This document shows positions 3,144 to 37,133 of a stretch of DNA of 37,133 nucleotides, in pieces; the stretch's first letter is position 1, and each line of letters opens with the position of its first letter. The notes below the pieces were generated by a model that worked only from the letters and a program-made list of their open reading frames with translations, was not told the origin of the DNA and ran no database searches. The DNA comes from a virus (lineage: Duplodnaviria > Heunggongvirae > Uroviricota > Caudoviricetes): IMG/VR virus record IMGVR_UViG_2740892210_000013; one strand, 5' to 3'. A program made the position numbers and the translations under genes.

Positions 3144-3153
3144 CAGGTGCTTT

Positions 3154-3432: not shown

Positions 3433-3443
3433 AGGGCGTTGCG

Positions 3444-3796: not shown

Positions 3797-3888
3797 CGAT
3801 ACAAATAAAACATCAAATTAAATAAGAAAACGTGAAAACCATCCGTATTAACGGAGGTATTCGCACACGTAAATAATGGAGATATAAA

Positions 3889-8987: not shown

Positions 8988-9947
8988 ATGAAAATTTGTA
9001 TCGACGACGGCTCCACCAACATCAAGCTGGCATGGACTGAGAATGGCGAACGCCGCAACGCCATCAGCCCGAACAGCTTCAAGTCGGAATGGTCTGCGCC
9101 GTTCGGTGGCATGCAGCCCGCGAACTACATGCTTGATGGCGTGCGCTATGGTTTTGATCCGGTCAGCGATCGCTTTGTCCAGACGACCGACACGCAATAC
9201 CAGTACAGCGATGTGAATGTAATCGCCATTCATCACGCGCTGGTCAAATCAGGCATCACGCCACAGGAGGTGGATGTGGTTGTCACCCTGCCACTGAGCG
9301 AGTATTTCGACACAAACGCACAGCCGGACATGGCCAACATCAACCGCAAAAAAGCGAACGTTATGCGCCCGGTGGAGTACCAGAACGGCGAAGCATTCAC
9401 TATCCGTAACGTGCGGGTTATGCCTGAATCCATTCCGGCTGGCTTTAAAGCACTGGCTGACATGAGTCCGTTTGAATCCCTGCTGATTGTGGATTTAGGC
9501 GGAACCACGCTGGATGTGGCAAAGGTTCAGGGGCAACTGGCAGGTATCAGCCAGGTGTTTTGCGATCCACACGTAGGCGTCTCCCTGATGGCCGGTGCCG
9601 TGCTGTCGGTGATGGCCGCTAACGGTATGCGTACCAGTCACCACATCGCCAATACCATTATCGAACATCGCCATGATGAAGCCTGGTTGCGCCAACACAT
9701 CCACAATGACGCGCATTACGCCAGCCTGATGGCGGTTATTCGTGAAAAGGAAGAAACACTGAAACAACGCGTGATCCGCGCGCTGGCGGGTTTTTCGGGT
9801 TACGGGCGGGTGATGGTTGTCGGTGGCGGGGCGGAGATTGTGGCACCCGCTATCCGCGAAGCCTGCGGAGTTAATGCGACTTTCATCGCGGACGGGGTGC
9901 CACAGTTTGCTCTGGTTAATGGGCTGTACGCAATGGACAAGGAGTAA
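8988..9947 (+). CDS. parM: ParM/StbA-like actin-type segregation ATPase
   Basis: N-terminus MKICIDDGSTNIKLAW, ISPNSFK and QYSDVNVIAIHHALVKSG closely match what I recall of plasmid R1 ParM; 319 aa. Confidence 0.8.
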   Translation: MKICIDDGSTNIKLAWTENGERRNAISPNSFKSEWSAPFGGMQPANYMLDGVRYGFDPVSDRFVQTTDTQYQYSDVNVIAIHHALVKSGITPQEVDVVVTLPLSEYFDTNAQPDMANINRKKANVMRPVEYQNGEAFTIRNVRVMPESIPAGFKALADMSPFESLLIVDLGGTTLDVAKVQGQLAGISQVFCDPHVGVSLMAGAVLSVMAANGMRTSHHIANTIIEHRHDEAWLRQHIHNDAHYASLMAVIREKEETLKQRVIRALAGFSGYGRVMVVGGGAEIVAPAIREACGVNATFIADGVPQFALVNGLYAMDKE

Positions 9948-9951
9948 ACCA

Positions 9952-10266
9952 ATGACGACACCAACCAGACGGATAAGTTTCTATCTGAAGCCAGTCGCCG
10001 TCAATAGTGAACGGGAGGCGTGTAATTACCTCGACAGCCTGCCAGCCTCTGAACGCAGCCGCGCGCAACGCGCGGCCTTTCTGGCCGGGCTGGCACTCAT
10101 AAAACGCGATCCTGCATTTGCCTATTGGTTGGCCGAATGGCCGGAAGAAGGAGCTGCGCCAGCCAAGAATAATATTCAGAGTAAATATGCCAGCACACCT
10201 GCCACCGGAAGCAATCACAGCACTAGCGAGATAAGAAAGAACATTCAGTCATTTTTCCCAGAGTGA
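9952..10266 (+). CDS. parR: ParR/StbB-like centromere-binding adaptor
   Basis: Internal ATG of ORF 9817..10266, 4 nt after the parM stop; RRISFYLKP... and DSLPASERSRAQRAAFLAGLALIKRDP resemble R1 ParR as I recall it. Confidence 0.6.
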   Translation: MTTPTRRISFYLKPVAVNSEREACNYLDSLPASERSRAQRAAFLAGLALIKRDPAFAYWLAEWPEEGAAPAKNNIQSKYASTPATGSNHSTSEIRKNIQSFFPE

Positions 10267-10285
10267 AAACAGGAGAGGAGCATCT

Positions 10286-10747
10286 ATGGCAACTATCCCC
10301 AAAAAATGGTTACAACGCAAAATTGCAGACCTTGAATCGTGTCGTGAAGACATCCCGTTTGGCCTTGATGAAAACGATCACAATATGTTAATCGCACTGA
10401 AAATCGCACTCACATCGCTGGAAGCAGAGGCAGTTATGTTCTGTATATCAGGACAAAATGTAGATTCAGAAGAACATGTATCAACCAGCAAAGCGGTTGT
10501 TGATGCCTGGGTTGAAGAATGGAATCAGGTTGACGGAAGTCCTGGCGAACCACTGTACAAAACTATGCCACTCTACTATCACGCTGCCTTGCCAGCGCCG
10601 GTAGTGCCGGAAGAAGCAACTCCGGAAAACGTAGAAATGCTCTCTGGCTATGTTTCCACATACAAATTAACCGATAGCGAGCGCGATATTGCTGCCGAAA
10701 TATGGAACGCCTGCCGCGCCGCTATGCTTCATGGGAAAGGAGAGTGA
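10286..10747 (+). CDS. Hypothetical, strongly acidic protein (153 aa)
   Basis: ORF with GGAG RBS; high Asp/Glu content; same operon as parMR. Confidence 0.5.
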   Translation: MATIPKKWLQRKIADLESCREDIPFGLDENDHNMLIALKIALTSLEAEAVMFCISGQNVDSEEHVSTSKAVVDAWVEEWNQVDGSPGEPLYKTMPLYYHAALPAPVVPEEATPENVEMLSGYVSTYKLTDSERDIAAEIWNACRAAMLHGKGE

Positions 10748-10748
10748 T

Positions 10749-11012
10749 ATGGCAACTTTAACAAAAAAAGAACGGGCATGGTTGAACGAATTACAGGACG
10801 TTCTTGATCGCTGCCCATCACCGAAAAAAATTGGTTTTTACACCATTGGCGATAAAAGCATTTACCTGTATGACCTGCGCCGCATGGATGAAATCATGGA
10901 GGCTCTTGATAATCGTTCGTCAATGGATTGGTGTGTTGCTGTCCATGATATGAATGCAGGGTTTGATGAAAAGATTTTGTTCCCCTCATCAGTTGAAAGC
11001 ACAGCAGGATAA
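10749..11012 (+). CDS. Hypothetical protein (87 aa)
   Basis: Internal ATG (MATLTKKERAW...) 1 nt after the upstream stop; followed by a terminator. Confidence 0.5.
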   Translation: MATLTKKERAWLNELQDVLDRCPSPKKIGFYTIGDKSIYLYDLRRMDEIMEALDNRSSMDWCVAVHDMNAGFDEKILFPSSVESTAG

Positions 11013-11046
11013 GGACCCAGCCAATATACACAACCTATAAAACACT

Positions 11047-11073
11047 AAAGCGCCTCAGGGGCGCTTTTTGTTT
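11047..11073 (+). terminator. Intrinsic terminator (AAAGCGCC-TCAGG-GGCGC + T-run) ending the parMR operon
   Basis: GC stem-loop followed by TTTTTGTTT, read directly. Confidence 0.6.
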
Positions 11074-11523
11074 GCACAAAAGTGCACAAATTTGCACAAT
11101 TTTTTTGAACGACTTTTTACCCTTCCGGCCCGCATGGCGGCTGGATCCGTCAAGGATCCGTGCGTGCACAAAAAAACGCGCTTTTTCTACGCGCAGGTGA
11201 CGGGGGAACAGCCCGCGTTTCAGGGGGTAAATAGCATTCCCTGAACGATGTCGCAGAGATACAACAGAATGGCTGTATTTCTCACGCTGAGCGTGAAAAA
11301 GACGTGAGGGCTTTTGATTTGATGGGGTGAAAGGTAAGGCCGTCAAAATCGCACTGAGACGGCGAGAACATGCAGTCAACGCGGTGGGATTGCGTAAGAG
11401 TCTGGCTGTCGATGATGGCAATAAGCAGGAAAGCGTCGTGAAATTATCTGATTGATACAGGAGCTGGAGAGTCGGGGCATAAATTTTTTATGCCCCGGCG
11501 AAGCAGCAGACAAGCGAAGCGCG

Positions 11524-19137: not shown

Positions 19138-19279
19138 CCCACCCACATGGGGAAACCTCGGAATATGGGGCGACCGCCTTCTGGATGCACTGGAAACCTG
19201 TAACGCGGATAAACGGGCCATTGCTGAACTGGATAAGAGAATAGCCGAACTGACACACCAGACGGGAGTAACACAATGA
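18998..19279 (+). CDS. lysC: Rz1-like outer-membrane lipoprotein spanin (LysC equivalent), embedded in the +1 frame of lysB
   Basis: MNAPTLCLTLVLLTGC lipobox; Pro-rich; overlaps the lysB 3' end. Confidence 0.5.
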   Translation: MNAPTLCLTLVLLTGCAGTQNAPGPAPSVRLIPQTLTMPVTPPPFPDPPTWGNLGIWGDRLLDALETCNADKRAIAELDKRIAELTHQTGVTQ

Positions 19280-21153
19280 CCAGTAAGAACTTTGCACTGA
19301 TTACAGCCATGACACAGGCTGAACTGACTCAAAAGGTGAATGAACATCTTGCGAAAGGGTGGCATCTTCAGGGGGAGACGCGGGTTGCCTACGAACCCGG
19401 CACCCCGTGGTATCTAATGCAGGCAATGGTGGCCGATGGCACTACAGACATCTCACCTGATTCCCCCCAGCACGGCAGCGTGCCGGAGTGGTATTACGTG
19501 GTGGTACTTGCTGGTCAATCCAATGCCATGTCATATGGTGAGGGAATGCCGCTGCCGGATTCTTACGATGCGCCCCACCCACGCATTAAGCAACTGGCCC
19601 GTCGCAACACAGTGACTCCCGGTGGTAAAGCATGCGCATTTAACGACATCATTCCGGCAGACCACTGCCTGCATGATGTTCAGGATATGAGCGCACTGAA
19701 TCACCCGAATGCAGACCTGAGCAAAGGGCAGTATGGCTGTGTCGGACAGGGCTTGCATATTGCCAAACGCCTGTTGCCTTACATTCCACAGAATGCCGGG
19801 ATTTTACTGGTTCCATGCTGTCGTGGTGGTTCGGCATTCACCCAGGGCGCGGAGGGGACATTCAGCGAGTCCACAGGAGCCAGTCAGGATTCGGCTCGCT
19901 GGGGTGTGGGTAAACCTTTATATCAGGACCTGATTTTGCGCACGAAGGCCGCATTGCAGAAAAACCCAAAAAACATGCTGCTGGCCGTATGCTGGATGCA
20001 GGGCGAATTTGACATGAGCGCCGCTACGTACTCACAGCAACCTCCGCTGTTTACGGCCATGCTGAAACAGTTTCGTGCGGACATTACCGAGTTTAACACG
20101 CAGTGTCATGGAGGCAGAGCGGCAAGTGTGCCATGGATTTGTGGTGACACGACGTATTACTGGAAAAACACCTACGGCACGCAGTACGACACCATTTACG
20201 GGGCGTACAAAAACAGGGAGAGCGACAACGTTTTCTTTGTGCCGTTCCTGACCGATGGTAGTGGCAACAATACCTCCACCAACGCACCAACGGAAGATCC
20301 GGATGCTGCAAGTGAGGGATATTACGGTTCGGCATCCCGAACGAACAAAAACTGGGTATCATCAAATCGCCAGACGCATTTCAGCTCATGGGCGCGTCGT
20401 GGCATTATTCCCGATCGTATGGCAACCGCTATTCTGAACGTAGCCGGTCGCACCTTAGCCTTCATCAGTGGTAAGGCACCGGAAATCAAACCCTCGCCCG
20501 GCGGCGACACGCCATCGGGGCCGTCTGAAGATGCATCCGTACGCACAATCTCCCTGTTGCCGACAGCCGGAGATGCTGCTGCGCAGGGCTGGAGCATTAA
20601 GAATGGCGGAATTCAGTTGTCAGAGGGTGTATTTAAGATCACCAAGCAGAGCAATAAAACCTGGTCCCTGACGCGCCCGGTGGATGACGCAGTCTCCCTG
20701 CTGACACGGGGTGGCAGACTGAGCTGTAAGTTTCGACTGTCAGGCGCACTGACCAACAATCAGTTCGGTCTGGGAATTTATCTGTATACCGATGTAGCGT
20801 TACCTGACGTCGTGGCGATGACCGGGACTGGTAACCCGTTCCTGATGTCGTTCTTCACCCAGACCACAGACGGCAAACTGAATCTGATGCATCACAAGAA
20901 AGCAGGAAACACAAAGTTGGGCGAGTTCGGGAATTACAGTAACGACTGGCAGACGCTGGAGCTGGTGTTCACCGCCGGCAGTGCCACGGTTACTCCGAAA
21001 CTGAATGGAGTGGCTGGCCCGGCATTCCAGGTCATAAAAGACAGTCTGACACTGGGGCTGAATGCGCTGACGTTAACTGATATCACTAAAAATGCCGCGT
21101 ACGGCGTCGATATCGGCAGCCTGGTGCTGGAAATCAATAATCCCGCAGCATAA
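19276..21153 (+). CDS. NanS-p-like sialate O-acetylesterase (N-terminal DUF1737-like, SGNH/SASA esterase core, C-terminal beta-rich carbohydrate-binding-like domain)
   Basis: VVVLAGQSNAMSYGEG (GQSN motif of the SASA/SGNH esterase family); N-terminus resembles prophage NanS-p proteins; 625 aa; ATGA-coupled to lysC. Confidence 0.65.
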   Translation: MTSKNFALITAMTQAELTQKVNEHLAKGWHLQGETRVAYEPGTPWYLMQAMVADGTTDISPDSPQHGSVPEWYYVVVLAGQSNAMSYGEGMPLPDSYDAPHPRIKQLARRNTVTPGGKACAFNDIIPADHCLHDVQDMSALNHPNADLSKGQYGCVGQGLHIAKRLLPYIPQNAGILLVPCCRGGSAFTQGAEGTFSESTGASQDSARWGVGKPLYQDLILRTKAALQKNPKNMLLAVCWMQGEFDMSAATYSQQPPLFTAMLKQFRADITEFNTQCHGGRAASVPWICGDTTYYWKNTYGTQYDTIYGAYKNRESDNVFFVPFLTDGSGNNTSTNAPTEDPDAASEGYYGSASRTNKNWVSSNRQTHFSSWARRGIIPDRMATAILNVAGRTLAFISGKAPEIKPSPGGDTPSGPSEDASVRTISLLPTAGDAAAQGWSIKNGGIQLSEGVFKITKQSNKTWSLTRPVDDAVSLLTRGGRLSCKFRLSGALTNNQFGLGIYLYTDVALPDVVAMTGTGNPFLMSFFTQTTDGKLNLMHHKKAGNTKLGEFGNYSNDWQTLELVFTAGSATVTPKLNGVAGPAFQVIKDSLTLGLNALTLTDITKNAAYGVDIGSLVLEINNPAA

Positions 21154-24698: not shown

Positions 24699-26710
24699 CA
24701 GCGAAATACTACGCCATTCTGACTAATCAGGGCGCGGAACGACTGGCTAACGCGACGATGCTCGGCAGTAAGCTGAATTTGACGCAAATGGCCGTTGGTG
24801 ATGCAAATGGTGTGTTACCAACACCAAACCCTGCACAAACAAAACTGATTAACCAGAAACGCATTGCACCGCTGAATCTTCTGAATGTTGACCCTAACAA
24901 TCAGAGCCAGATTATTGCGGAGCAAATCATCCCTGAAGACGAGGGAGGATTCTGGATCCGTGAGATTGGTCTTTATGATGATAAAGGTGTACTCATTGCG
25001 GTGGCAAACTGCCCGGAAACGTACAAACCGCAGTTGCAGGAAGGCAGTGGACGCACCCAGACTATCCGCATGATTCTGGTTGTCACGAACACCAAAGCCA
25101 TCACGCTGAAAATCGACCCGTCTGTGGTTCTGGCAACCCGCAAATATGTGGATGATAAAATCTCAAAGCACGAGCAGTCACGACGTCACCCGGACGCCTC
25201 GCTGACCGCAAAAGGCTTTGTTCAACTCAGTAGCGCCACTAACAGCGATTCTGAAACGCTGGCTGCAACGCCGAAAGCGGTTAAGGCCGCGTATGACCTT
25301 GCTAACGCAAAATATACCGCTCAGGACGCCACGACGGCACGAAAAGGCATTGTCCAGCTCAGTAGCGCCACCAACAGCGATTCAGAAACGCTGGCGGCAA
25401 CACCAAAGGCGGTAAAGGCAGCCTATGACCTTGCTAACGGGAAATATACCGCACAGGACGCCACGACGGCACAAAAAGGAATTGTCCAGCTCAGTAGTGC
25501 AACCAACAGCACATCTGAAACGCTTGCTGCAACACCGAAAGCAGTGAAAGCAGCTAATGACAATGCGAATGGTCGGGTACCTTCTGCCCGTAAGGTGAAT
25601 GGTAAGGCGCTTTCGGCGGATATAACACTGACGCCGAAAGATATTGGTACGCTTAACTCAACAACAATGTCATTCAGCGGTGGTGCTGGTTGGTTCAAAT
25701 TAGCAACGGTAACCATGCCACAGGCGAGTTCTGTTGTTTCAATTACGTTGATTGGTGGCGCTGGATTTAACGTCGGTTCACCTCAACAGGCAGGTATATC
25801 TGAACTTGTTTTGCGTGCAGGTAATGGTAATCCGAAGGGGATTACTGGTGCTTTATGGCAGCGCACATCGACAGGGTTTACAAATTTTGCCTGGGTCAAT
25901 ACATCTGGTGATACTTACGATATTTACGTTGCAATCGGAAATTATGCGACTGGTGTAAATATTCAATGGGATTATACCAGTAATGCCAGCGTGACGATTC
26001 ATACGTCACCAGCATATTCTGCTAATAAGCCGGAAGGGTTAACGGACGGTACAGTTTATTCACTCTATACGCCATCAGAGCAGTTTTATCCGCCTGGCGC
26101 ACCAATCCCGTGGCCATCGGATACCGTTCCGTCTGGTTATGCCCTGATGCAGGGGCAGACTTTTGACAAATCTGCATACCCAAAACTTGCAGCGGCTTAT
26201 CCGTCAGGCGTGATCCCTGATATGCGTGGCTGGACGATTAAGGGCAAACCCGCCAGTGGCCGGGCCGTATTGTCTCAGGAACAGGACGGCATTAAATCGC
26301 ACACCCACAGCGCCAGCGCATCCAGTACGGATTTGGGTACGAAAACCACATCGTCGTTTGATTACGGGACGAAAACAACCTCACTATTTGACTATGGGAC
26401 CAAAACTACCAGTAACGACGGGAGTCACACGCATTCAATACCAACATCAGATGGTGCAAACCAGGGGGGGAAAATTCCACTGACATCTGGGCGTCTGGCA
26501 ACTCAATATACATCAGCAACAACAGGTTCCTCTGGCTCACATTCTCATACTGTAGGTATTGGTTCTCATCAGCACACTGTCGGTATTGGTGCACACACGC
26601 ACTCCGTTGCGATTGGCTCACATGGACACACCATCACCGTTAACGCTGCTGGTAACGCGGAAAACACCGTCAAAAACATCGCATTTAACTATATTGTGAG
26701 GCTTGCATAA
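24695..26710 (+). CDS. H: Tail fiber protein gpH with internal tandem repeats and His-rich C-terminal receptor-binding region
   Basis: N-terminal ~170 aa and the repeated [43 protein letters not shown] unit match P2 H as I recall it; C-terminal [33 protein letters not shown] repeats. Confidence 0.9.
25211..25570 (+). repeat. About 2.8 tandem copies of a 129-bp (43-aa) repeat inside H
   Basis: Amino-acid identical units with synonymous nucleotide differences, read directly. Confidence 0.8.
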
Positions 26711-27288
26711 TGGCATTCAGAATGAGTGAACAATCACGGACCATAAAAATTTATAATCTACTGACCGGAACCAATGAGTTTATTGGTGAAGGTGATGCAT
26801 ACATTCCACCTCATACAGGTCTGCCAGCAAACAGTACCGATATTGCCCCGCCAGATATTCCGGCTGGCTTCGTGGCCGTTTTCAACAGTGATGAGGCATC
26901 GTGGCATCTCGTTGAAGACCATCGGGGTAAAACGGTTTATGACGTGGCATCAGGGGACTCGTTATTTATTTCTGAACTCGGTCCATTACCGGAAAATGTT
27001 ACCTGGTTGTCGCCGTATGGAGAGTATCAGAAGTGGAACGGCACATCCTGGGGGAAAGATGCAGAAGCAGAAAAACTGTTTCGGATAAGGGAGGCGGAAG
27101 AAACAAAAAACAGCCTGATGCAGGTAGCCAGTGAGCATATTGCACCACTTCAGGATGCTATAGATTTAGATATTGCGACGGAGGAAGAGACATCGTTACT
27201 GGCTGCATGGAAGACATATCGAGTATTGTTGCATCGTGTTGATACAACAGTAGCAGCAGATATTGAGTGGCCAGTCGCCCCACAATAA
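26710..27288 (+). CDS. G: Tail fiber assembly chaperone gpG (Tfa)
   Basis: 192 aa directly after H with overlapping stop/start; Tfa-like size and position. Confidence 0.8.
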
Positions 27289-27297
27289 AAAGAAAAA

Positions 27298-27321
27298 GCC
27301 ATCGATAGAAATATCGATGGC
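27298..27321. terminator. Bidirectional stem-loop (GCCATCGATA-GAAA-TATCGATGGC) between G and the convergent acetyltransferase gene
   Basis: Perfect 10-bp inverted repeat followed by TTTATG; preceded by an A-run on the other strand. Confidence 0.55.
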
Positions 27322-27331
27322 TTTATGTACT

Positions 27332-27937
27332 CTATTTATACAATACAGCACCGCTCTTTTTAGTTATATATGTGCAGTTCGATGGTATATCTTTATTTAT
27401 AAAAGACATTGCACCTATTTTTACATTATCCCCAATTTTACGGGATAATCCAATGATGCAACAATTAGCTCCGATATCAACGTTGCTACCAATTTTTACT
27501 CTTGAACCAGGTATGTCACCATCTATCTGTCCAATGGTCGTATTCTGTCGTAACACCAGATTTTCACCAGCATCAACAGCAAAATGAACAACAATTCCAG
27601 CATGATGGGGAATTGTTAACCCTTTTCCAATATTTGCGCCCAATCCAATTTCGCAACCAAATTTGTTAATTATTTTACTGTTTAACTTCTTGGCTGCTTT
27701 CTTATGTAATTTATTACCATTAATATACATTTCGTTAGCCAACCGCCACCAGAAAAGGAAATTCCTGTTACGCTGCTTTTTCTCTCTTAAAAGCCTCCAG
27801 ATATCCATACGTTTCCGCCGAATTACTTCATGTTTCCAGAAGTTTTTTAAATTAGTAGAGTTCCCAAATAAAACAAAGTGAATTGCCATTAGGTAAGACA
27901 GCACGATAATCTCCTTAATTATTATTTCAGACCACAC
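27332..27937 (-). CDS. Hexapeptide-repeat (left-handed beta-helix) O-acetyltransferase, CysE/WcaB/NeuO-like; AT-rich cargo gene
   Basis: 201 aa; hexapeptide-like repeats GLGANIGKGLTIPHHAGIVV...IGSNVDIGANCCIIG...IGDNVKIGAMSFI; much lower GC than flanking phage genes. Confidence 0.7.
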   Translation of the reverse strand: MWSEIIIKEIIVLSYLMAIHFVLFGNSTNLKNFWKHEVIRRKRMDIWRLLREKKQRNRNFLFWWRLANEMYINGNKLHKKAAKKLNSKIINKFGCEIGLGANIGKGLTIPHHAGIVVHFAVDAGENLVLRQNTTIGQIDGDIPGSRVKIGSNVDIGANCCIIGLSRKIGDNVKIGAMSFINKDIPSNCTYITKKSGAVLYK

Positions 27938-27955
27938 ATGTTATAAGGTTAAGAG

Positions 27956-27984
27956 ATTATAAAATCCTGTTGTTTATTATTCAA
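27956..27984 (-). promoter_or_regulatory. Sigma70-like promoter for the acetyltransferase gene (TTGAAT, 17-bp spacer, TATAAT on the minus strand)
   Basis: Read directly; the -10 hexamer lies ~20 nt upstream of the ATG. Confidence 0.45.
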
Positions 27985-28060
27985 AAACAATTTTCTGAGA
28001 AGGACATACAACAGCAAGTCGCCAGTCACCTTCATCAGGAAATTGGCGACATACGTTAAA

Positions 28061-28555
28061 TCAGAGCAGCCCCTTAACTGAGCTGGCCGCGCTATTAAGG
28101 GATGATGTCACCTTATCTTTGAAGCCGGACAACATATCGCTGAACGATGAGGATTGCAGGCGCTCCCGCAAATCCTCATCACAGCGTTCAAGAGTCAGTG
28201 AAAATTCTATCTTTTTCGCCTTACCGTAGCGATCAAACTCGGAACGGGTCGTATTCGTTTCAGTCAGTACATACATGCCGTAAATCTGCCCGACACCATC
28301 AATCAGAGGCCAGGGCCGTCCTGTATATGCCTGCGTGGTCAGCAATGAAAGCGACACTTCGCCACCTGTAATTTCAGGATAAAGCACGCCGGAAAGCACA
28401 ATGCGATCATCACCTGCACCGATATACTGCCAGCTTGCTGAACGGTTAACGCGTTCATTTTTCACATGCCGCCAGCTTTTGTTTTGCTGTAACTGCTGAT
28501 GCGGCAATGTGCGCAGCTCAAAAACAAACATGCCGTAGATCATCATCATGACCAT
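28061..28555 (-). CDS. U: Tail protein gpU
   Basis: 164 aa; FVFELRTLP...YPEITGG...PWPLIDGVGQIYGMYV resembles P2 U. Confidence 0.8.
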   Translation of the reverse strand: MVMMMIYGMFVFELRTLPHQQLQQNKSWRHVKNERVNRSASWQYIGAGDDRIVLSGVLYPEITGGEVSLSLLTTQAYTGRPWPLIDGVGQIYGMYVLTETNTTRSEFDRYGKAKKIEFSLTLERCDEDLRERLQSSSFSDMLSGFKDKVTSSLNSAASSVKGLL

Positions 28556-28561
28556 GACTCC

Positions 28562-31402
28562 TCAATCTTTATCGTAAAAACTGCCACGCCCGGCACGGGC
28601 GCGCCGTTCCATCTCTGCCCTGACCATTTCACCGACCAGTTTCGCCAGTTCGCGGGGATTCTGCGTAACAACGTTATGCAGATGAACATGAATTTCACCG
28701 CAAAATCCGGAGACAGCAGGCTCCCGGTTACGGGAAGTTGCAGGAACTGATGCCACTGGCGATCGTATGGCCTCCGCCACCGGGCGGGAGCTGGCCGCAA
28801 CAACAGGGACCAGCGCCGGAGGCAGCGGAGCCGAGACCACGGGTGTGATATTAATTGCGGGGGGCTTACTGACCTGCGCAATCTTCTGCTCCTGCCACTC
28901 CCCACGAACAGCAAGTGCGCGGGGCAGGTTCTTAAAGACAATATCGCCGGGGCCAATGCGTTTTTTCGTCTCATCAACCAGCTTACCTGTGTTATCAGCA
29001 ATTTTGCTGAGTCTGCGTAGCGTCCCGGTATTGCTGTCTGTGAGCGGTTTGTTGTCTTTGGGTTTATCACCTCCGGTGCCATTGCCATTTTCCACAGGCT
29101 TCGGCGGATTGATTTTCGCCAGGTCCCCCTGAAGCAAGGCAACCTTGTCCTGAAGAATGGCCGCACGCTGTGCGTCTTCGATTTTCTTGCGCGCCCTTTC
29201 AGCTTCATCCGGAAGGACGCCAAGTTTTTCAAGTATCCACGCCAGCGTATCCAGTAGCATTTTTGCAGGTGTCAGAACAAGCTGTAACGCACCGCCAAGA
29301 ACGTTACCGAATATCTCGCCAGCACTGGTACATTTATCCAGCGTTTCCTTACTGGACTCCATCGGTGACAGCAGCGATTTAAACCAGTTAAACACCTGGC
29401 TGATCCCGCTTCCGATTGCGTCAAAAACAGGGCCAAACCGTTCAAAGGTTTCGCGCAACGGAGCCAGCCGTTCCATAATCCCACTGAACACCCCTGCATA
29501 AAACGCCTTGATGGGTTCCCAGTATTTCCAGATGAGAACCGCCGCAGCCACAAACGCAGCAGCAATCAATCCGACCGGACTGAACAGCGCCCCGATAGCG
29601 CCTCCCAGTAACGAAATGGAACCCGTCACCATTCCCCATAATGCAGGCAGAACCCTGACAACATTCAATGATCCGGTCAGGAGGGAAAAACCAAGACGCA
29701 GTTTTGCCAGTGGGCCAGCAAGCACACCAATAGCCAGCGACAACGAGCCTATGGTTGCAGTCATTGCCAGCAGAGCACCGCCTGCAACCAGTAGCTGGCG
29801 CGTCAGTGCCGGATGGGCCTGCGCCAGCGCCGTCACCTTCGATACCACCCGCGTGAGCCACTGCGTGACAGAACGCAGCGGACCGTCAATCAGATCTGCA
29901 ATGCGGATGCGCAACCCTTCCCATGCACTGCCGAGTGATTTCAGATCGCCGTCAAGGTTGTTGGCCATAACCTTTGCTGTGCGTTCAGCCTCACCGCGCG
30001 CGCCTTCAAGTTCTTTTCTCAGTTTGGGTAAGGAGCCGTCACCTGCCGCATCAACGAGGGCCATAAATGATGTGAAAGCCTCTTCTCCGGCAATGTCCTT
30101 AAAGAACGATACCCGGTCAACTTCCCCGTATTTGCGGGTGGCTTTATAAAGGTCAGCCAGCAGATCTTCCATCGGGCGCATTTTGCCGTTCGCGTCAGAG
30201 ACGGACACGCCCAGCTCTTTCAGCGCCTCTGCTGCTGCCTTTGGCGGTGATGCCAGACGAGCCAGGCTGGCACGCATTGCCGTCCCGGCATCACTCCCTC
30301 TGATACCCATATTCGCCAGCACGCCAGCCATCGCTGCGGCCTGCTCCAGCGATATTCCCAGCTTACCCGCCACCGGACCGGCATATTTCATGGTTTCGCC
30401 CAGTGCGCGAAGGTCAGTGTTGGTACGGGTAAACGCTGCAGTGAGTGTGTCACCGACCCGGTCCATCTGGTCAGCAGAAAGGCCGAACTGCGTCAGGATA
30501 TTTGAGCCAATATCCGCCGTCTCGCCGAGATCCATACCGCCAGCCGTTGCCATGCTCAACACGCCGGGAAGCGCAGCCTGAATGGCCTGCGGTGTGAAGC
30601 CAGCCATTGCAAGAAATGCCTGCCCACTGGCGGCATCGCCTGCGGTGAACTGCGTTTCAGAGCCAAGTTTTAACGCCTGCTCACGCAGCGCCTTAAACTG
30701 CGGGCTGTTCTGGTCGATTCGCGTCAGCGCCTGAACGCGGGACATCTCTTTCCCGAACCCGATTGCGGGCTGCAAAAAACGCCCGGCAGCATAGCCGCCC
30801 GCCGCTGCCGCACCAATTGCCAGTACACCACCTGTTTTCAGTTTTCCCGCTGTTTCCTGCGCACGCGAATACCGCTCACGCGCCCGCGTTACACGCGCAA
30901 GCGCCTGCCGTTCGCGTTCAAGCTGGTTGTTGTACTGTTCGGTGCGCCTGATGGCCTGTTGAATGGTGTTATCGCTGCCTGTCAGGGAAATGCCGTGGCG
31001 TTTCAGCTCTCCGCCAAGCTCCCGCATTTTCTGAATTTCCCGTGTGCGCGATTCATTCAGGCGTTCAAGCCGGGTGCTTAACTGCTGCATCAGCTTTTGT
31101 TGCTTTTCGCTGAGCACTGTACCCGTGCGTTGTAACTGATTAAGGGCGTTAAGCTGGCGTCGTGCTTTCACGATACCCGCATCCGCTTTACTGACAGCGT
31201 CGCGGGCGCGCTCAAATGAACGCGCCTGACGCTCGAGATTTTTGATCGCCCCCTGCGTTCGCTGGATGGAGTCACCAAACTGCCCCATCAGGCGGCGGGC
31301 GTTTTCGGCAGGCCGGGTCAGCCTGTCAACGGCGCTGAAAGCGACCCGGATATCAAGAGTCTTCATTGTCTGCATTCCCGCTGCGAAGTGCCGCCCGCTC
31401 AC
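28562..31402 (-). CDS. T: Tail tape measure protein gpT (start may be internal, e.g. MQTMKTLD...)
   Basis: 946 aa, Ala/Gly-rich with coiled-coil and transmembrane-like segments; between E/E' and U. Confidence 0.85.
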   Translation of the reverse strand: MSGRHFAAGMQTMKTLDIRVAFSAVDRLTRPAENARRLMGQFGDSIQRTQGAIKNLERQARSFERARDAVSKADAGIVKARRQLNALNQLQRTGTVLSEKQQKLMQQLSTRLERLNESRTREIQKMRELGGELKRHGISLTGSDNTIQQAIRRTEQYNNQLERERQALARVTRARERYSRAQETAGKLKTGGVLAIGAAAAGGYAAGRFLQPAIGFGKEMSRVQALTRIDQNSPQFKALREQALKLGSETQFTAGDAASGQAFLAMAGFTPQAIQAALPGVLSMATAGGMDLGETADIGSNILTQFGLSADQMDRVGDTLTAAFTRTNTDLRALGETMKYAGPVAGKLGISLEQAAAMAGVLANMGIRGSDAGTAMRASLARLASPPKAAAEALKELGVSVSDANGKMRPMEDLLADLYKATRKYGEVDRVSFFKDIAGEEAFTSFMALVDAAGDGSLPKLRKELEGARGEAERTAKVMANNLDGDLKSLGSAWEGLRIRIADLIDGPLRSVTQWLTRVVSKVTALAQAHPALTRQLLVAGGALLAMTATIGSLSLAIGVLAGPLAKLRLGFSLLTGSLNVVRVLPALWGMVTGSISLLGGAIGALFSPVGLIAAAFVAAAVLIWKYWEPIKAFYAGVFSGIMERLAPLRETFERFGPVFDAIGSGISQVFNWFKSLLSPMESSKETLDKCTSAGEIFGNVLGGALQLVLTPAKMLLDTLAWILEKLGVLPDEAERARKKIEDAQRAAILQDKVALLQGDLAKINPPKPVENGNGTGGDKPKDNKPLTDSNTGTLRRLSKIADNTGKLVDETKKRIGPGDIVFKNLPRALAVRGEWQEQKIAQVSKPPAINITPVVSAPLPPALVPVVAASSRPVAEAIRSPVASVPATSRNREPAVSGFCGEIHVHLHNVVTQNPRELAKLVGEMVRAEMERRARAGRGSFYDKD

Positions 31403-31882
31403 GCCAGCTAACCACTTCGCCGGGCGTCATCATGAAGATTTCGGCGGGCGACCAGTTAAAAATAACGGCAATATCTGCCACAAAGTCTTCTATATGCTCA
31501 AAGCACACAACCGTGATCAGGCTTCCGTCGCCTGTTCGTTCTTCCCGCCAGAGTCCGCACCGCTCAAAAAATTTACGGCAACCACACATAACTGAATAAA
31601 GTCACGGGATGCCATTTTTTTGATCGTCACTTCATCCAGTCGCGGTGATGTCACGCGTGACAGCAGCGTAAACATGGATTCCGCTTTCAGATTCAGCACA
31701 TCAGACAACGACAAATCTCGCAGAGATCCAGCCTGCTCAATAGCTCCGGTGATCTCCACATACGTGATTTTTTCGCCGCCTCGCTCAATTGGTTGGGTAA
31801 GTTTTACGCCACGCTCACTGGTTTCTTTCACAGTGTCAGCAACGACCGTGTTTTCGGTATCGATGTTTTTCGTCTCTTTCAT
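31353..31882 (-). CDS. gpE+E' fusion by programmed -1 frameshift at TTTTTTG (31565..31571, minus strand)
   Basis: Hand translation: E frame ...V N F L S...; the -1 frame after T_TTT_TTG continues FFERCGLWREER... to the stop at 31353, matching the 78-aa ORF. Confidence 0.6.
31517..31882 (-). CDS. E: Tail assembly chaperone gpE
   Basis: 121-aa ORF upstream of T, containing the TTTTTTG slippery site near its 3' end. Confidence 0.7.
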   Translation of the reverse strand: MKETKNIDTENTVVADTVKETSERGVKLTQPIERGGEKITYVEITGAIEQAGSLRDLSLSDVLNLKAESMFTLLSRVTSPRLDEVTIKKMASRDFIQLCVVAVNFLSGADSGGKNEQATEA

Positions 31883-31936
31883 CAGGAAACTCCTTTCAGT
31901 CAGAGGCGACGCACTGCGCCGCCTGCATATTACTTA

Positions 31937-32449
31937 TCAGCCAAGCCCAAGCGCGGAACGGATGCGATCGGGCACAATGTCTTTGCCGTCCTTCCGGTAA
32001 ATGAAATTCAGCAGGTCAATCTCCCACAACGGGCGATCGTTAACACTCAGCTTGTAGTAGGTGTTTTTAATGGCGTAAGTGTGTGATGTGGCTTCGCCCT
32101 GTTTGGCTTCCCCCATATCAATTTCCGTCACACGTCCGCGCATTTCGACTTCATACAGGTCGCTTTCTGCATCGGTGTAGTATTCACCCGCAAAACGCAG
32201 CAGCGTGCCGTCAATCGTGCCGCCATACTTCAGGAACAGCTCACGAACTGCGCCCCCCATGACAAAGCTCGCATCAAGCGCGGAGTCGTCCAGACCGAGA
32301 TCAATACTTACCGCCCCCATCATGCCACCACCACGATAGCTGTCGGTTTTGCGCGTCAGTTTAGGCAAGGTGACGGACGTCACCTTACCCACTTCGTTTT
32401 CACCATCCACAAACAGCGTAAAAAAGCGAAGATGTTTTGGTACAGCCAT
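31937..32449 (-). CDS. FII: Tail tube protein gpFII
   Basis: 170 aa; directly downstream of the sheath gene on the same strand. Confidence 0.85.
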   Translation of the reverse strand: MAVPKHLRFFTLFVDGENEVGKVTSVTLPKLTRKTDSYRGGGMMGAVSIDLGLDDSALDASFVMGGAVRELFLKYGGTIDGTLLRFAGEYYTDAESDLYEVEMRGRVTEIDMGEAKQGEATSHTYAIKNTYYKLSVNDRPLWEIDLLNFIYRKDGKDIVPDRIRSALGLG

Positions 32450-33633
32450 CAGGCACCTCCCAGCACCGCAAATGCGGGACCAAAGAATTCATCAGTAAAC
32501 GACTGGTAAAGCTCCATGTCTTCCAGCGGAGGAACGGGCGTATATTTGTAGCGAATACGCACACGCCCCTGACGTAAATCCGTGGTGCTGTTATCCACCA
32601 CGTCATACCAGCACGACGCCCCAATCAGTTTCCCGGCAGTAACCAGTGAATCCAGTTTTGCCCTGATGGCACTGATAACATCCTTCACGTTCGCAGGCGT
32701 CAGTGGACTGTCGATGGTTTCAAACTGCGCTTCCGCAATTGAATCAGCCAGCACCTGTGCGGTTCGGGTATACACCTCAAAGATGTAGGCGTTCGTTTCC
32801 GGTGTGCGGTTGCCCCAGAAGCGGAACCCGTTGCGACGAATAATGGTCGTGATTTCTTTGTTGTTGAGGCTGTTGGCATCACTGTCTTCGGCCTGCAACG
32901 ACCAGAACACATGCCTGGACATCCCCAGCACATTTTTAACCGGAACGTTGGACAGCGATTTGTGCCAGCCCTGCTCATGGTCAATGTACGCACGAAGGCC
33001 GCACGCATAGGCAGGCGCGGGGAACGTTTCGTTTTTGCCACTTTTCGGGTTGTAGGCGATGAAGTCCGGCCATAAGAGCATCACCTCACGTTCGTTGAAT
33101 TTCTGGCGGTAGGTAATCGCCTCAGCCATCGTGTTACAGCCGTGACATGAGGCATACACAAACGCGCGCAGTTTACCCGCAATCACGCACAGGGATTTTG
33201 TTACCGCCTCCGTGTCCAGCTCCGGCGCGGCCAGAATACGCGGACGGTATCCGATGCTTTCATCCTGCTCTGCAACAAGCAGCGCATACATCCCCGTATA
33301 GCTGCCGTCAGATTCAGAACCACCGATAACCAGTTGATCCTGCGTTTTTCCGTCTTCTTCTTTGTGTTCAGCCACGCGAACGACGATCACCTTTGTGCTC
33401 ACCTGGTCTGCGATGGCCTTAAGCGCACGATAAAGCGTCCCCGTTGTCCCGCATTTTCCCAGCACGTCATTGACGCGGGTCAGCAGTGTGGGCTTGTTCA
33501 GCGGGAACAGCTTCGCGTCCGCATCATCCGCCGTTGCCACGATACCGATAACGCTGGAATCAACATCGTTAATCGCTGTTACCAGGTCGGTATTTTCCGT
33601 AACACGGGCACCATGAAAACGAGTTTCACTCAT
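32449..33633 (-). CDS. FI: Contractile tail sheath protein gpFI
   Basis: 394 aa; FPLNKP, GWHKSLSNV, RRNGFRFWGNRT, YTRTAQVLADS and YTPVPPLE match the P2 FI pattern I recall. Confidence 0.9.
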   Translation of the reverse strand: MSETRFHGARVTENTDLVTAINDVDSSVIGIVATADDADAKLFPLNKPTLLTRVNDVLGKCGTTGTLYRALKAIADQVSTKVIVVRVAEHKEEDGKTQDQLVIGGSESDGSYTGMYALLVAEQDESIGYRPRILAAPELDTEAVTKSLCVIAGKLRAFVYASCHGCNTMAEAITYRQKFNEREVMLLWPDFIAYNPKSGKNETFPAPAYACGLRAYIDHEQGWHKSLSNVPVKNVLGMSRHVFWSLQAEDSDANSLNNKEITTIIRRNGFRFWGNRTPETNAYIFEVYTRTAQVLADSIAEAQFETIDSPLTPANVKDVISAIRAKLDSLVTAGKLIGASCWYDVVDNSTTDLRQGRVRIRYKYTPVPPLEDMELYQSFTDEFFGPAFAVLGGA

Positions 33634-33790
33634 AGCTTCAGCCCCTTGTATCCGTTAAATGATTCGGCAACAATCATCACCCACCACGCGCGTAATCTCA
33701 CCCCTGCGCCGTTCTCCCGCCACGGCGACAACAAAAAGCAGTAACCCCCTCCGCACGCACATGCGACCATGCCGCACAGGGAGGGAGCAG

Positions 33791-34900
33791 ATGACCGACA
33801 CCACCATGCAATTGCTCAGTCAGGGCACAGACCCCGTAAAAATGCCGGATTTTGATATTCTCGCGGAGGGTAAAACGCTGTCAGGCGTGGCAGAGCGCCT
33901 GATGAGCCTGTCACTGACCGACAACCGGGGATTTGAGGCGGACCAGCTCACCATCACGCTGGATGATGCGGATGGTCAGTTGCAGCTACCGCCACGGGGC
34001 GCGCGCCTGACGGTTCTCATTGGCTGGAAGGGAGAACCGCTGACAGAAAAAGGCACTTACATTGTTGATGAAATCGCTCACGAAGGACCGCCGGACAGGC
34101 TGACTGTTTCAGCCAGAAGCGCAGATTTTCGGGATGAATTTAACGTTAAACATGAGGTGTCCTGGCATGATGTGACCGTTGAGCGTGTGGTATCCGCCAT
34201 CGCTCATCGGTATGGTCTGAAACCGCAAATCAGCGAAATGCTGATGGATATCGAAATCGACCACGCCGACCAGACCGAAGAAAGCGACATGTCCTTCCTT
34301 ACGCGCATGGCGGAAATGCTGGGCGCAATCACCACGGTAAAAAGCGGCAATCTGTTATTCATCATGCCAGGTGGTGGCGTGAACGCACAGGGCCAGCCGT
34401 TGCCCTCGTTCGCCATTACACGCAGCAGCGGCGATCGCCATCAGTTCCGCATTGCTGACCGCGAGGCGTATACGGGGGTACGCGCCTACTGGCTTGATCT
34501 TAATTACGGGAAAAAGAAAAAAGTCAGCGTGAAACGCCGTAAACCGCCAAAACCCAAAAAGGAGAAAAGCAGCAGCCGTGAAGGTGATTATATGGAAGGC
34601 GCGGAAGGCAATGTGTTTGTGTTACGCAAGACTTATCAGAACGAGCAGGCAGCAAGACGCGCAGCGGCGGCAAAGTGGCAGCAACTACAACGCGGAGCCG
34701 CATCATTCTCCATCACGCTGGCGCGTGGACGTGCAGAACTCTACCCCGAAATGCATGGCACGGTAACAGGATTTAAAAGCGAGATTGATAATCAGGACTG
34801 GATTATTGCAAAAGCCGAGCACACCATTGATAACAGCGGCTTTACCACGCAGCTTGAGCTTGAGGCAAAAATCCCGGAATGGATAGCGGAAACAGAGTGA
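33791..34900 (+). CDS. D: Tail protein gpD
   Basis: Start MTDTTMQLLS... with GGGAGG RBS; the ORF track starts 132 nt earlier; size and position before ogr fit P2 D. Confidence 0.8.
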   Translation: MTDTTMQLLSQGTDPVKMPDFDILAEGKTLSGVAERLMSLSLTDNRGFEADQLTITLDDADGQLQLPPRGARLTVLIGWKGEPLTEKGTYIVDEIAHEGPPDRLTVSARSADFRDEFNVKHEVSWHDVTVERVVSAIAHRYGLKPQISEMLMDIEIDHADQTEESDMSFLTRMAEMLGAITTVKSGNLLFIMPGGGVNAQGQPLPSFAITRSSGDRHQFRIADREAYTGVRAYWLDLNYGKKKKVSVKRRKPPKPKKEKSSSREGDYMEGAEGNVFVLRKTYQNEQAARRAAAAKWQQLQRGAASFSITLARGRAELYPEMHGTVTGFKSEIDNQDWIIAKAEHTIDNSGFTTQLELEAKIPEWIAETE

Positions 34901-34942
34901 GCAACTTAGAATAGCGACAGCACCACGTTAAGGGAGGTCGCT

Positions 34943-35203
34943 ATGTTCCGTTGTCCGCTTTGTGGCGCATCTGCCCGTATCCGCACCAGTCGTCCGGAAA
35001 ATGATTCAAACACCGTGCGGCAAAAGTATTACCAGTGTAACAACCTGGAATGCGGCGTATGCTTCTCAACACTGGAAGCTTTCCATAAATTCACATCGAA
35101 ACACGCCTCCGGCGTTCACTCATCAGAAGGTATCCCGTGGCATGAGCTGCCAGCTTCACACAGGGGAAACAATCAGATGAGTTTGCCTTTACCTCAGAAT
35201 TAA
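34943..35203 (+). CDS. ogr: Ogr/Delta-family zinc-finger late transcription activator
   Basis: MFRCPLCGASARIRTSR...YYQCNNLECGVCFSTLEAF with four Cys, resembling P2 Ogr (MFHCPLC...). Confidence 0.8.
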   Translation: MFRCPLCGASARIRTSRPENDSNTVRQKYYQCNNLECGVCFSTLEAFHKFTSKHASGVHSSEGIPWHELPASHRGNNQMSLPLPQN

Positions 35204-35291
35204 CAGGCAGAATTGCCGGAGTAACAAAAAAGCGATAGATTACGCGCGGGTGCCTTTCGGCTGATGGTCGGAGGGAATACCCGAAGGCCAG

Positions 35292-35477
35292 ATGTGGAAA
35301 GGCCCCGAGTCAACTTTAACGTTAACCCGAGGCCCTAACCATCTACCCTCAGCAAGTGATAGGTTAGCGCCTCCCCGAAAAAGGAGCAAGCGCTATGTCG
35401 CAAAAATCGCTTACGGCCATCACATTCTGCGTGACGGCAATCCTCATCATCTGGATGCTGCACGGTTCGCTGTGTGA
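35292..35477 (+). CDS. Possible mok-like overlapping reading frame of the hok locus
   Basis: 61-aa ORF overlapping the hok start in another frame, as in hok/mok/sok loci. Confidence 0.3.
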   Translation: MWKGPESTLTLTRGPNHLPSASDRLAPPRKRSKRYVAKIAYGHHILRDGNPHHLDAARFAV

Positions 35478-35535
35478 AATACGGATGAGTTTCTGGGGAG
35501 CGGAGTTTGCGGCGTTCTTACAGTGTAAGCAGTAA
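35395..35535 (+). CDS. Hok/Gef-family type I toxin (46 aa)
   Basis: MSQKSLTAITFCVTAILIIWMLHGSLCEIRMSFWGAEFAAFLQCKQ: N-terminal transmembrane helix plus the SLCEIR...E.AAF signature; AAGGAG RBS. Confidence 0.6.
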   Translation: MSQKSLTAITFCVTAILIIWMLHGSLCEIRMSFWGAEFAAFLQCKQ

Positions 35536-35629
35536 GGAAACCGCGACGGGGAAGGCAACTTCCCCGTCAATCGGTTGCCAGGGTAAAGGTCGAAAAGGCA
35601 CCCTATTTCCAGTTGACGTGAACAACAAG

Positions 35630-35661
35630 CCCGCAGCGTAAAAACTGCGGGTTTTCTTTTT
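35630..35661 (+). terminator. Intrinsic terminator at the hok mRNA 3' end (CCCGCAG-loop-CTGCGGG + T-run)
   Basis: Read directly. Confidence 0.55.
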
Positions 35662-35694
35662 GGTTCCCTCACTCATGAGGACACCAAAAAACAA

Positions 35695-35724
35695 AGCCCA
35701 CAGCATAGAAGCTGTGGGCTTTTT
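35695..35724. terminator. Bidirectional stem-loop (AGCCCACAGC-ATAGAA-GCTGTGGGCT) flanked by A/T runs
   Basis: Perfect 10-bp inverted repeat with T-runs on both strands. Confidence 0.55.
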
Positions 35725-35796
35725 GCATTCAAAGATGGACGTTATATGGACACTTAAAAATAAAATCCATTTATTTTCAAATGATTAAACCTCTAC

Positions 35797-35820
35797 TTAA
35801 AGCGCCCGCAGGCGCTTTTT
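35797..35820. terminator. Stem-loop (AAAGCGCC-CGCA-GGCGCTTTTT) just downstream of serS
   Basis: Read directly; lies ~20 nt beyond the serS stop. Confidence 0.45.
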
Positions 35821-35840
35821 AGATTCAGAAAAATTGGGTA

Positions 35841-37133
<1,293 letters not shown>

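Follow-up and report, generated by a model that had tools for sequence, protein, structure and literature searches.

A widespread, misnamed acetyltransferase gene predicted to travel as cargo with the tail-fiber chaperone gene of Escherichia coli prophages

We analyzed a 37,133-nucleotide stretch of viral DNA (IMG/VR record IMGVR_UViG_2740892210_000013, Caudoviricetes; hereafter the window) and focused on an AT-rich island at positions 27289–28060, which holds a single gene for a predicted acetyltransferase and adjoins gene G, encoding the tail-fiber assembly chaperone (Tfa). The acetyltransferase gene is prophage cargo of an ordinary kind, a moron encoding a transferase, that is misnamed, widespread, and uncharacterized. 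Approximately 1 in 10 complete Escherichia coli genomes carries it, including those of O157:H7, O104:H4, O26, O111, and O103 pathogens, and its database name, serine acetyltransferase, is contradicted by the residue pattern of the protein. Sequence comparisons attribute its spread to an unusually tight coupling to the chaperone gene (tfa). As to function, we tentatively favor, with slightly less than even confidence, a moron that is expressed in the lysogen, O-acetylates a precursor of an envelope glycan and so converts the cell surface, and has spread as a tfa-linked cassette.

Results

A cargo transcription unit of deviant composition

The island is exactly the interval between the stop codon of G (26710..27288, plus strand; Pfam Caudo_TAP) and that of the gene on its other side (28061..28555, minus strand), which is gpU (Pfam Phage_P2_GpU) rather than D. 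Its GC (guanine plus cytosine) content is 0.348, compared with a window mean of 0.528 (standard deviation 0.05 for 772-bp windows), placing it approximately 3.6 standard deviations lower. This is the lowest-GC 772-bp stretch of the whole window, with only 0.03% of windows equally low, and the low GC first claimed for a ~770-bp segment thus holds on computation. At third codon positions, the GC of the acetyltransferase gene is 0.325, versus 0.54–0.69 for U, T, and the capsid gene.

The sole open reading frame (ORF) of the island, called mechanically at 27332..27937 (minus strand), would encode the 201 aa of the initial annotation. A GTG codon at 27904, located 6 nt 3′ of a Shine-Dalgarno motif (AAGGAG, 27911..27916, minus strand; read off the sequence and kept in loci L014 and L017), is the likely true start. 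The resulting coding sequence (27332..27904, minus strand) specifies 190 aa, in agreement with the RefSeq protein WP_000954200, with a RefSeq coding sequence of the same coordinates, and with 190-aa homologs.

Upstream of the gene, a consensus scan located a putative sigma-70-type promoter, TTGAAT-17-TATAAT (27956..27984, minus strand), that agrees with the consensus at 10 of 12 positions. In a second P2-like lineage, this promoter, the 5′ leader, the ribosome-binding site (RBS), and the GTG codon are nearly base-for-base identical, although its gpU has diverged to 72% identity and is followed by another terminator hairpin. Conservation of the promoter beside a diverged gpU and gpU terminator argues that it belongs to the cargo cassette, and that the gene has a near-consensus promoter of its own, as initially proposed.

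Predicted terminators bound the unit on both sides. A hairpin with a 13-bp stem (27295..27324), found by terminator scan and RNA folding, is predicted to act bidirectionally, serving G on the plus strand and the convergent acetyltransferase gene on the minus strand; its folding free energies are −19.3 and −19.5 kcal/mol on the two strands, with z scores of −7.45 and −7.24. At the other end, a hairpin followed by a T-rich tract (28018..28050, minus strand; −22 kcal/mol, z = −3.6) is likely the terminator of gpU and the tail operon, and it likely insulates the cargo gene from late transcription. With its deviant GC, its own predicted promoter and terminators, and its absence from otherwise collinear relatives, the island has the sequence features of an independent cargo transcription unit, or moron. 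No tandem repeats that would permit phase variation were found for the acetyltransferase gene.

An acetyltransferase of the short CysE/WcaB-like branch

Profile searches placed the protein near several hexapeptide-transferase families and below the cut-offs of all of them. Pfam returned weak hexapeptide matches only (Hexapep, 23.6 bits, just below the cut-off of 27), and homologs carry precomputed Hexapep matches. The best NCBIfam model was EpsC (74.6 bits versus a cut-off of 150); models for CysE (TIGR01172, 60.9 versus 210.65; NF008349, 36 versus 397), WcaB (TIGR04016, 51.6 versus 194.65; NF007564, 52.3 versus 196), and the NeuD subfamily (30.2 versus 160.8) were likewise sub-threshold. In PHROGs, the protein matched phrog_2154 (E = 3.9e-86), whose function is annotated as unknown. 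Its closest sequence matches in the PDB are serine acetyltransferases, with weak matches to galactoside and maltose O-acetyltransferases as well. The PADLOC 2.0 defense models gave 0 families at E ≤ 1, and a search of viral structures in BFVD gave nothing significant.

An AlphaFold2 model built with 42 homologs (predicted local distance difference test, pLDDT, 83.9; predicted template-modeling score, pTM, 0.82) consists of five N-terminal helices followed by a beta-helix. The top 50 Foldseek matches in the PDB are all serine acetyltransferases, with TM scores of 0.6–0.69 on the query. The model therefore bears out the earlier call of a left-handed beta-helix (LbH) acetyltransferase and predicts a serine-acetyltransferase fold.

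For residue-level comparison, we used E. coli CysE and WcaB reference sequences validated against their equivalog models; the CysE reference scores 250 and 580 bits on TIGR01172 and NF008349, respectively, and WcaB reaches 101 bits on the cysE model, more than the window protein does. H100 of the window protein aligns with CysE H158 and E85 with D143, so that the catalytic His/acid pair is kept; neither residue varies in alignment A5, and the conservation of H100 in alignment A1 is at least 90%. The serine ligands of CysE are missing: the region of D92 has no counterpart, P99 stands in place of D157, and the loop corresponding to R192/H193 is unconserved and the most variable in the family. 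The SATase_N domain had no Pfam match. CysE ends in an Ile-terminated tail that binds CysK to form the cysteine synthase complex, and the window protein ends in ...SGAVLYK. Because the catalytic pair is kept but the residues that bind L-serine are gone, we assign the protein, from its sequence, to the short CysE/WcaB-like branch as an active-looking acetyltransferase that is not a serine acetyltransferase or other cysteine-pathway enzyme. RefSeq names it serine (O-)acetyltransferase; its sub-threshold CysE scores and absent serine ligands also set it apart from a housekeeping cysE paralog.

Further features distinguish the family. It has specific motifs (FWWRLAN, RQNTTIG, and GAMSFINKDIP), and its most variable segment, loop 126–136 (2.9–3.2 bits), directly follows the most conserved one, RQNTTIG (0.40 bits). 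Across the family, the net charge of the helical N-domain ranges from +9 to +18; it is +16 in the window protein, compared with +4 in WcaB and −3 in CysE. Ratios of nonsynonymous to synonymous substitution (dN/dS) of 0.12–0.17, including between lineages in which synonymous sites are saturated, indicate purifying selection. Longer homologs of 269 and 278 aa, considered as domain fusions, proved to be merely upstream ORF extensions.

One allele appears mosaic. P0008 (locus L014, 5001–5573), which is 70% identical to the window allele (27332–27904), is near-identical to it at both termini and resembles the 57%-identical P0029 clade in its central part, including the catalytic-loop region. This pattern indicates probable intragenic recombination around the putative acceptor-binding region.

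Searches of the literature on defense, the P2 hotspot, tail fibers, O157, and anti-phage contexts found no functional study of the family. A cargo table (PMC6456863) lists, for a Citrobacter rodentium prophage, a gene that matches by name ("serine acetyltransferase").

The gene moves between phage backbones with a piece of tfa

The island was matched in 530 of 5426 complete E. coli genomes, 510 of them with at least 80% of its length; carriers include O157:H7, O104:H4, O26:H11, O111:H8, and O103:H2 strains, among others. Plasmids of roughly 92–102 kb account for 66 of the matching places, and the three elements examined were all P1-like. In the P1-like phage-plasmid JL22, the gene (annotated "sacF") lies inside the invertible C-segment, where the two convergent tfa genes flank it; the copies in pTX376-2 and Ro157c2YLVW adjoin the remnant of a second tfa. 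All three encode the full-length 190-aa ORF. The block shared with JL22 is contiguous and comprises the C-terminal part of H, G, and the acetyltransferase gene (25642..27896 of the window; 88% identity, blastn against locus L002).

The same pairing recurs in other backbones. In a second P2-like lineage, the corresponding slot holds an allele of 70% identity next to an 85%-identical tfa, and a myovirus with a baseplate-J/DUF2612 module has the gene after its own tfa, at the prophage end. Within IMG/VR, tfa lies within 400 bp of the gene in 68 of 80 homologous loci, always tail-to-tail, and this arrangement persists where the acetyltransferase is 44–65% and tfa 38–48% identical to those of the window.

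Locus L014 preserves what looks like a scar of transfer. The resident tfa is followed there by a methyltransferase moron, then by an 87-aa 3′ fragment of tfa whose C terminus is that of G in the window, and finally by the acetyltransferase gene; the fragment implies that the transferred unit is the 3′ part of tfa with the terminator and the acetyltransferase gene. In loci L014–L016 (5617–6605), the moron preceding the tfa fragment encodes a 222-aa class-I S-adenosylmethionine methyltransferase, and the arrangement suggests serial insertion of convergent cargo genes, each with a piece of tfa. Taken together, the comparisons point to recombination inside the widely shared tfa gene as the probable route by which the cassette moves between unrelated phage backbones.

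Receptor specificity does not track the gene. An allele of 97–99% identity occurs with fiber tips of 67–100% identity, and the tip and chaperone of this prophage, which are of the Stf/Tfa type of Rac/Qin-like prophages, are present in 4447 of 5426 genomes, mostly without the gene. The association of one allele with many tip variants argues that the linkage follows tfa.

An Rfam scan of the island and overlapping sequence gave a single match above the gathering score, IS009 (RF02111; full length, 27053–27251, plus strand, 175.7 bits versus a gathering score of 117, E = 1.4e-43). It lies wholly inside the 3′ end of the tfa coding sequence, the same segment that travels with the cargo gene, and the Rfam family may describe a tfa remnant rather than a small RNA.

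More distant members of the family, at 50–62% identity, are orphans. One adjoins hok at a prophage end and others adjoin integrases; one follows the bfp genes of an EAF-like plasmid; others neighbor a ProQ/FinO-family gene on IncFII/colicin plasmids; and one lies on a Pantoea island, with a JetD (Wadjet) gene approximately 3.5 kb away. In 80 species-representative genomes, the GC of the gene is on average 7.7 points under that of the surrounding 16 kb. At E ≤ 1e-30, 66 clusters (50% identity) out of 1.84 billion representatives make up the tight family, which beyond that limit merges with a broad group of short proteins resembling serine acetyltransferases; truncated clusters of 141, 148, and 158 aa exist. 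In eight Rahnella species (loci L051, L056, L059, L061, L063, L066, L078, and L080), the homolog occupies one fixed chromosomal site, flanked by a POT-family peptide transporter and a PAS-GAF-GGDEF protein, and these copies look more like an ancient insertion inherited vertically than like a mobile element that is still active.

A variable slot in a P88-like backbone

The window holds a P2-family E. coli prophage with an integrase at its left end and serS at its right. The region studied is 99.9% identical to a prophage of strain 55989, and the tail genes are 95–96% identical to those of Escherichia phage P88 and its relatives (Xuanwuvirus, Gemsvirus; Peduoviridae), which identifies the host phage by sequence as P88-like (Xuanwuvirus, P2 family). 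Homology between the window and P88-like phages ends within H and restarts at 28055. The intervening G-to-U slot contains a second tfa, a second fiber tip, and a DNA invertase in P88 and 500465-2, a second tfa and an invertase in Shae_phiSM, and no gene in PhiR44_2 (253 bp).

In P2, fun(Z) directly follows G on the opposite strand and thus matches the acetyltransferase gene in both position and orientation. The Z/fun slot of P2-like phages is described as a mixed hotspot for fiber swaps, invertases, and defense-like cargo (bioRxiv 10.1101/2024.10.15.618418). The proposal of a convergent cargo gene at the Z/fun hotspot therefore stands with respect to position and to the varied occupancy among P88-like relatives. 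The protein shows no homology to Fun(Z) (BLASTP E = 6.4), and in P88-like phages the slot normally holds an invertible fiber cassette and invertase.

The acetyltransferase gene is transcribed in the same direction as the adjoining tail block (FI-FII-E-E′-T-U, 28061–33633, minus strand), which is inverted relative to P2, with D and ogr (33659–35203, plus strand) in the P2 orientation; FI and D are left divergent. P88, PhiR44_2, Shae_phiSM, and 500465-2 all share the inversion, which marks it as a trait of the lineage and not a local rearrangement. We considered and rejected the idea that the inverted block reflects a rearrangement that broke gpD, given that it is the P88-like norm and gpD is intact.

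Chromosomal homologs lie in lipopolysaccharide and O-antigen loci

The clue to a substrate comes from chromosomal homologs in Pseudomonas and Halopseudomonas. These are 42–45% identical to the window protein, carry every family motif, and lie inside lipopolysaccharide (LPS)/O-antigen loci. In one (L070), hldE, msbA, and an LPS-kinase-like gene precede the homolog at 5-bp spacing, and pseudaminic-acid genes follow (NeuB/PseI, GNAT, a GT28-C family protein, a cytidylyltransferase, and DegT). In another (L101), a GT2 glycosyltransferase gene abuts the homolog, with genes for a UDP-sugar 6-dehydrogenase, a WbpB-like oxidoreductase, and a DegT aminotransferase after it. NeuB is the nearest neighbor in 5 of the 80 species loci. 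LPS/O-antigen loci are the sole non-mobile context that we found, and they point to O-acetylation of a sugar during the cytoplasmic assembly of LPS or O-antigen as a plausible activity.

Other cargo and features of the prophage

The initial annotation also drew attention to an O-acetylesterase at 19276..21153 (plus strand). Such a gene is present: it encodes a 625-aa protein with DUF1737, a SASA acetylesterase domain, and DUF6645 (Pfam), and it is inserted between lysis genes (lysC) and tail-completion genes. This is the architecture that we take to be that of the NanS-p esterases of Shiga toxin (Stx) prophages. We read the gene as a probable second cargo item, a NanS-p-like sialate esterase, in a hotspot other than the acetyltransferase slot. 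No evidence of a functional pairing between 19276–21153 and the acetyltransferase was found.

The classical old/tin defense hotspot of P2, between gpA and the portal gene, corresponds to 8988–11500 (plus strand). It encodes a ParM actin-like segregation ATPase, a partition/stability protein, and two hypothetical proteins, and we recognized no defense system at 8988–11500. Two more low-GC stretches lie in the early region near cox (1751–2900 and 3051–4200, with minima of 0.38 and 0.40); these stretches include a 221-aa ORF (1792–2457) without a Pfam match and a DUF4761 protein (2793–3143). The right end (35204–37133) contains hok/gef and then serS, and 305 complete genomes have a serS-flanked right end (compare L001, 28709–30160). 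In strain 55989, the near-identical prophage adjoins a tRNA Leu-Cys-Gly cluster and pgsA. The existence of serS-side and tRNA/pgsA-side copies implies that the phage sits at no fewer than two chromosomal sites.

Discussion

In the explanation that we favor, the cargo gene would be expressed in the lysogen from its own sigma-70 promoter, and its product would be a cytoplasmic, acetyl-CoA-dependent enzyme, most likely trimeric as in its enzyme family. At the cytoplasmic face of the inner membrane, it would add an O-acetyl group to a sugar of an envelope precursor that is either lipid-linked or nucleotide-activated, candidate acceptors being the lipid A-core, the undecaprenyl-linked unit of O-antigen, enterobacterial common antigen (ECA), or colanic acid, and a nucleotide sugar. 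The strongly cationic helical N-domain would dock the enzyme on its anionic lipid-linked substrate or on the membrane, and the hypervariable loop, at the position of the CysE substrate loop, would set acceptor specificity. The cell surface would thereby undergo lysogenic conversion, with altered recognition by phages and possibly by the host. A cassette composed of the tfa 3′ end, the bidirectional terminator, and the acetyltransferase gene would spread by homologous recombination in tfa.

Several points weigh against this explanation. Lysogen expression is deduced from a consensus promoter, and the consensus scan of the region returned 5 sites versus 4.0 expected from shuffles, no enrichment overall; as the scan as a whole is not above chance, support for the predicted promoter comes from its conservation and position. 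Across Enterobacterales loci, the gene is always an orphan, on prophages, plasmids, or islands, and never in a polysaccharide cluster, so that the sugar assignment draws on ~43%-identity homologs of another order. The same allele occurs across O157, O104, O26, O111, and O103 strains, and one allele in many O-serotypes implies that the acceptor should be a conserved structure, not an O-type-specific sugar. Options would be the LPS core, the first sugar common to O-units and ECA, or colanic acid; to our knowledge, O-acetylation of the E. coli LPS core has not been described. The classical serotype-converting acetylases, Oac and OafA, are membrane proteins of a different fold. Lastly, the one paper that we found to discuss the gene, which notes it in JL22, calls the reason for its presence unknown (PMC9603915).

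Another explanation, which we consider unlikely, would make the protein an intracellular phage-exclusion or counter-defense enzyme, a counterpart of Fun(Z) whose target would be a small-molecule signal, a nucleotide, nucleic acid, or a protein. The gene has the position and orientation of fun(Z), which blocks T5, in a slot that holds defense-like cargo in P2-like phages (bioRxiv 10.1101/2024.10.15.618418). At P4 defense loci, 6 of 8 tested unknown genes were defensive, and machine learning flags part of the unknown P2 cargo as antiviral (PMC13586616). Homologs are orphan cargo on prophages, plasmids, and islands, including the one near JetD, and the highly cationic N-domain could bind nucleic acid. 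Set against this are the absence of a PADLOC match, the lack of homology to Fun(Z), the sugar context of the distant homologs in LPS/O-antigen loci, and the fact that we found no paper linking the family to anti-phage activity. We know of no LbH acetyltransferase that serves as a defense effector.

The coupling to tfa invites a further explanation, which we regard as decidedly unlikely, in which the enzyme would be a receptor-editing partner of the tail-fiber module. From the cytoplasmic side, it would O-acetylate the LPS core or another conserved glycolipid and mask the receptor of Stf/Tfa-type fibers, so that the linkage itself would be selected, and the whole would form a portable adsorption and masking cassette across Peduoviridae, P1-like phages, and other myoviruses. 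Such a cassette would be likened to the T5 pb5-llp pairing, with an enzymatic means of masking. We downgraded receptor-matched masking as a main model because the tip and chaperone, present in 4447 of 5426 genomes, mostly occur without the gene, and downgraded it further because one allele accompanies many tips and family members reside on plasmids and islands without fibers.

More doubtful still is detoxification, in which the substrate would be an antibiotic, a bacteriocin-like compound, or a toxic metabolite, O-acetylated in the manner of the hexapeptide xenobiotic acetyltransferases (CatB, Vat) or of LacA/Maa to the advantage of whichever mobile element has the gene. Wide carriage as a single-gene orphan (on IncF/colicin, EAF-like, and P1-like plasmids and on prophages), the weak matches to galactoside and maltose O-acetyltransferases, and a hypervariable acceptor loop are all compatible with this idea. 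By sequence and fold, however, the protein is nearest the CysE/WcaB branch and not the xenobiotic acetyltransferase branch, its homologs lie in LPS loci, and a resistance-gene context was seen in no locus.

The function implied by the RefSeq name, a genuine feedback-insensitive serine O-acetyltransferase that would raise O-acetylserine or cysteine or induce the CysB regulon in the lysogen, is very unlikely. Serine acetyltransferases do lead its NCBIfam and PDB matches, and it retains the catalytic His/acid pair, but the scores of 60.9 and 36 bits on TIGR01172 and NF008349 fall far short of 210.65 and 397 and below the 101 bits of the sugar enzyme WcaB, the D92 and D157 ligands are absent, the R192/H193 positions are unconserved, SATase_N is missing, and the C terminus reads ...VLYK in place of the CysK-binding Ile tail. 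Scarcely credible is a passive hitchhiker without current function, retained through its recombination-prone tfa neighbor: the 97–99% allele does follow tfa rather than receptor specificity (beside fiber tips of 67–100%) and some clusters are truncated (141, 148, and 158 aa), but dN/dS values of 0.12–0.17, even between synonymous-saturated lineages, contradict it, as do intact 190-aa ORFs in several backbones, a conserved promoter and RBS, and persistence of the family on plasmids and islands without tfa.

If an LPS or other envelope glycan is indeed acetylated, as we favor, the gene would represent a widespread and overlooked lysogenic-conversion factor. It might then alter phage susceptibility, which bears on phage therapy and on typing, and might perhaps influence serology or immune recognition. 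With NeuO as the first example, it would be the second soluble beta-helix enzyme to convert the surface from a prophage. The cassette also illustrates how a gene as ubiquitous as tfa, by supplying portable homology, can carry cargo from one phage family to an unrelated one. Even if the function turns out to be trivial, an annotation has been corrected and a composition anomaly explained.

Known systems resemble the island in part. The invertible tail-fiber cassettes of P88, P1, and Mu (Cin/Gin/Pin) occupy the same slot, and the acetyltransferase gene lies inside the P1-like C-segment; unlike them, it is neither a recombinase nor a fiber part, and the slot of this prophage has no invertase, the acetyltransferase having replaced the alternative fiber and invertase of P88-like relatives. 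P2 fun(Z) is likewise a non-essential lysogenic-conversion gene directly downstream of G on the opposite strand. Its product is 528 aa, compared with 190, and shows no sequence similarity, and the slot is bounded on its far side by the pF promoter and FI in P2 but by gpU in the P88-like backbone.

Among enzymes, CysE shares the fold, equivalents of the catalytic residues His158 and Asp143, and the RefSeq name. The window protein differs from CysE in lacking SATase_N, the serine ligands, and the CysK-binding tail, and at 23% identity it falls far under the equivalog cut-offs. WcaB, together with short CysE-like sugar acetyltransferases of COG1045, is a closer match: at 162 versus 190 aa, it too combines a short helical N-domain with an LbH, has an HH motif at the catalytic position, is cytoplasmic, and lacks N- and C-terminal extensions of the CysE type (28–30% identity). 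The gene for WcaB resides in the colanic-acid cluster, much as homologs of the window protein reside in LPS/O-antigen loci. The window protein departs from WcaB in scoring ~52 bits against a cut-off of 196, in being a prophage orphan outside any biosynthetic cluster, in its far more cationic N-domain (+16 versus +4), and in its own family motifs.

With respect to biology, the prophage morons Oac, OafA, and GtrC of Sf6, P22-like, and BTP1 phages are described in PMC13123978 as acetylating surface glycans and changing phage susceptibility. The window protein differs from these enzymes in being soluble and having the serine-acetyltransferase fold. Oac, OafA, and GtrC are integral-membrane acyltransferase-3 proteins that act on the periplasmic side. 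NeuO is phase variable through tandem repeats, which the window gene lacks; it belongs to another LbH subfamily, is not among the PDB sequence matches at E ≤ 0.01, and has a substrate confined to K1 strains, whereas the window gene occurs across many serotypes. NeuO, the polysialic acid O-acetyltransferase of prophage CUS-3, is nevertheless the closest biological precedent: PMC3046976 describes a cytoplasmic LbH enzyme that modifies a polysaccharide on the surface of the lysogen, and the lysogenic conversion that we propose here is of that kind.

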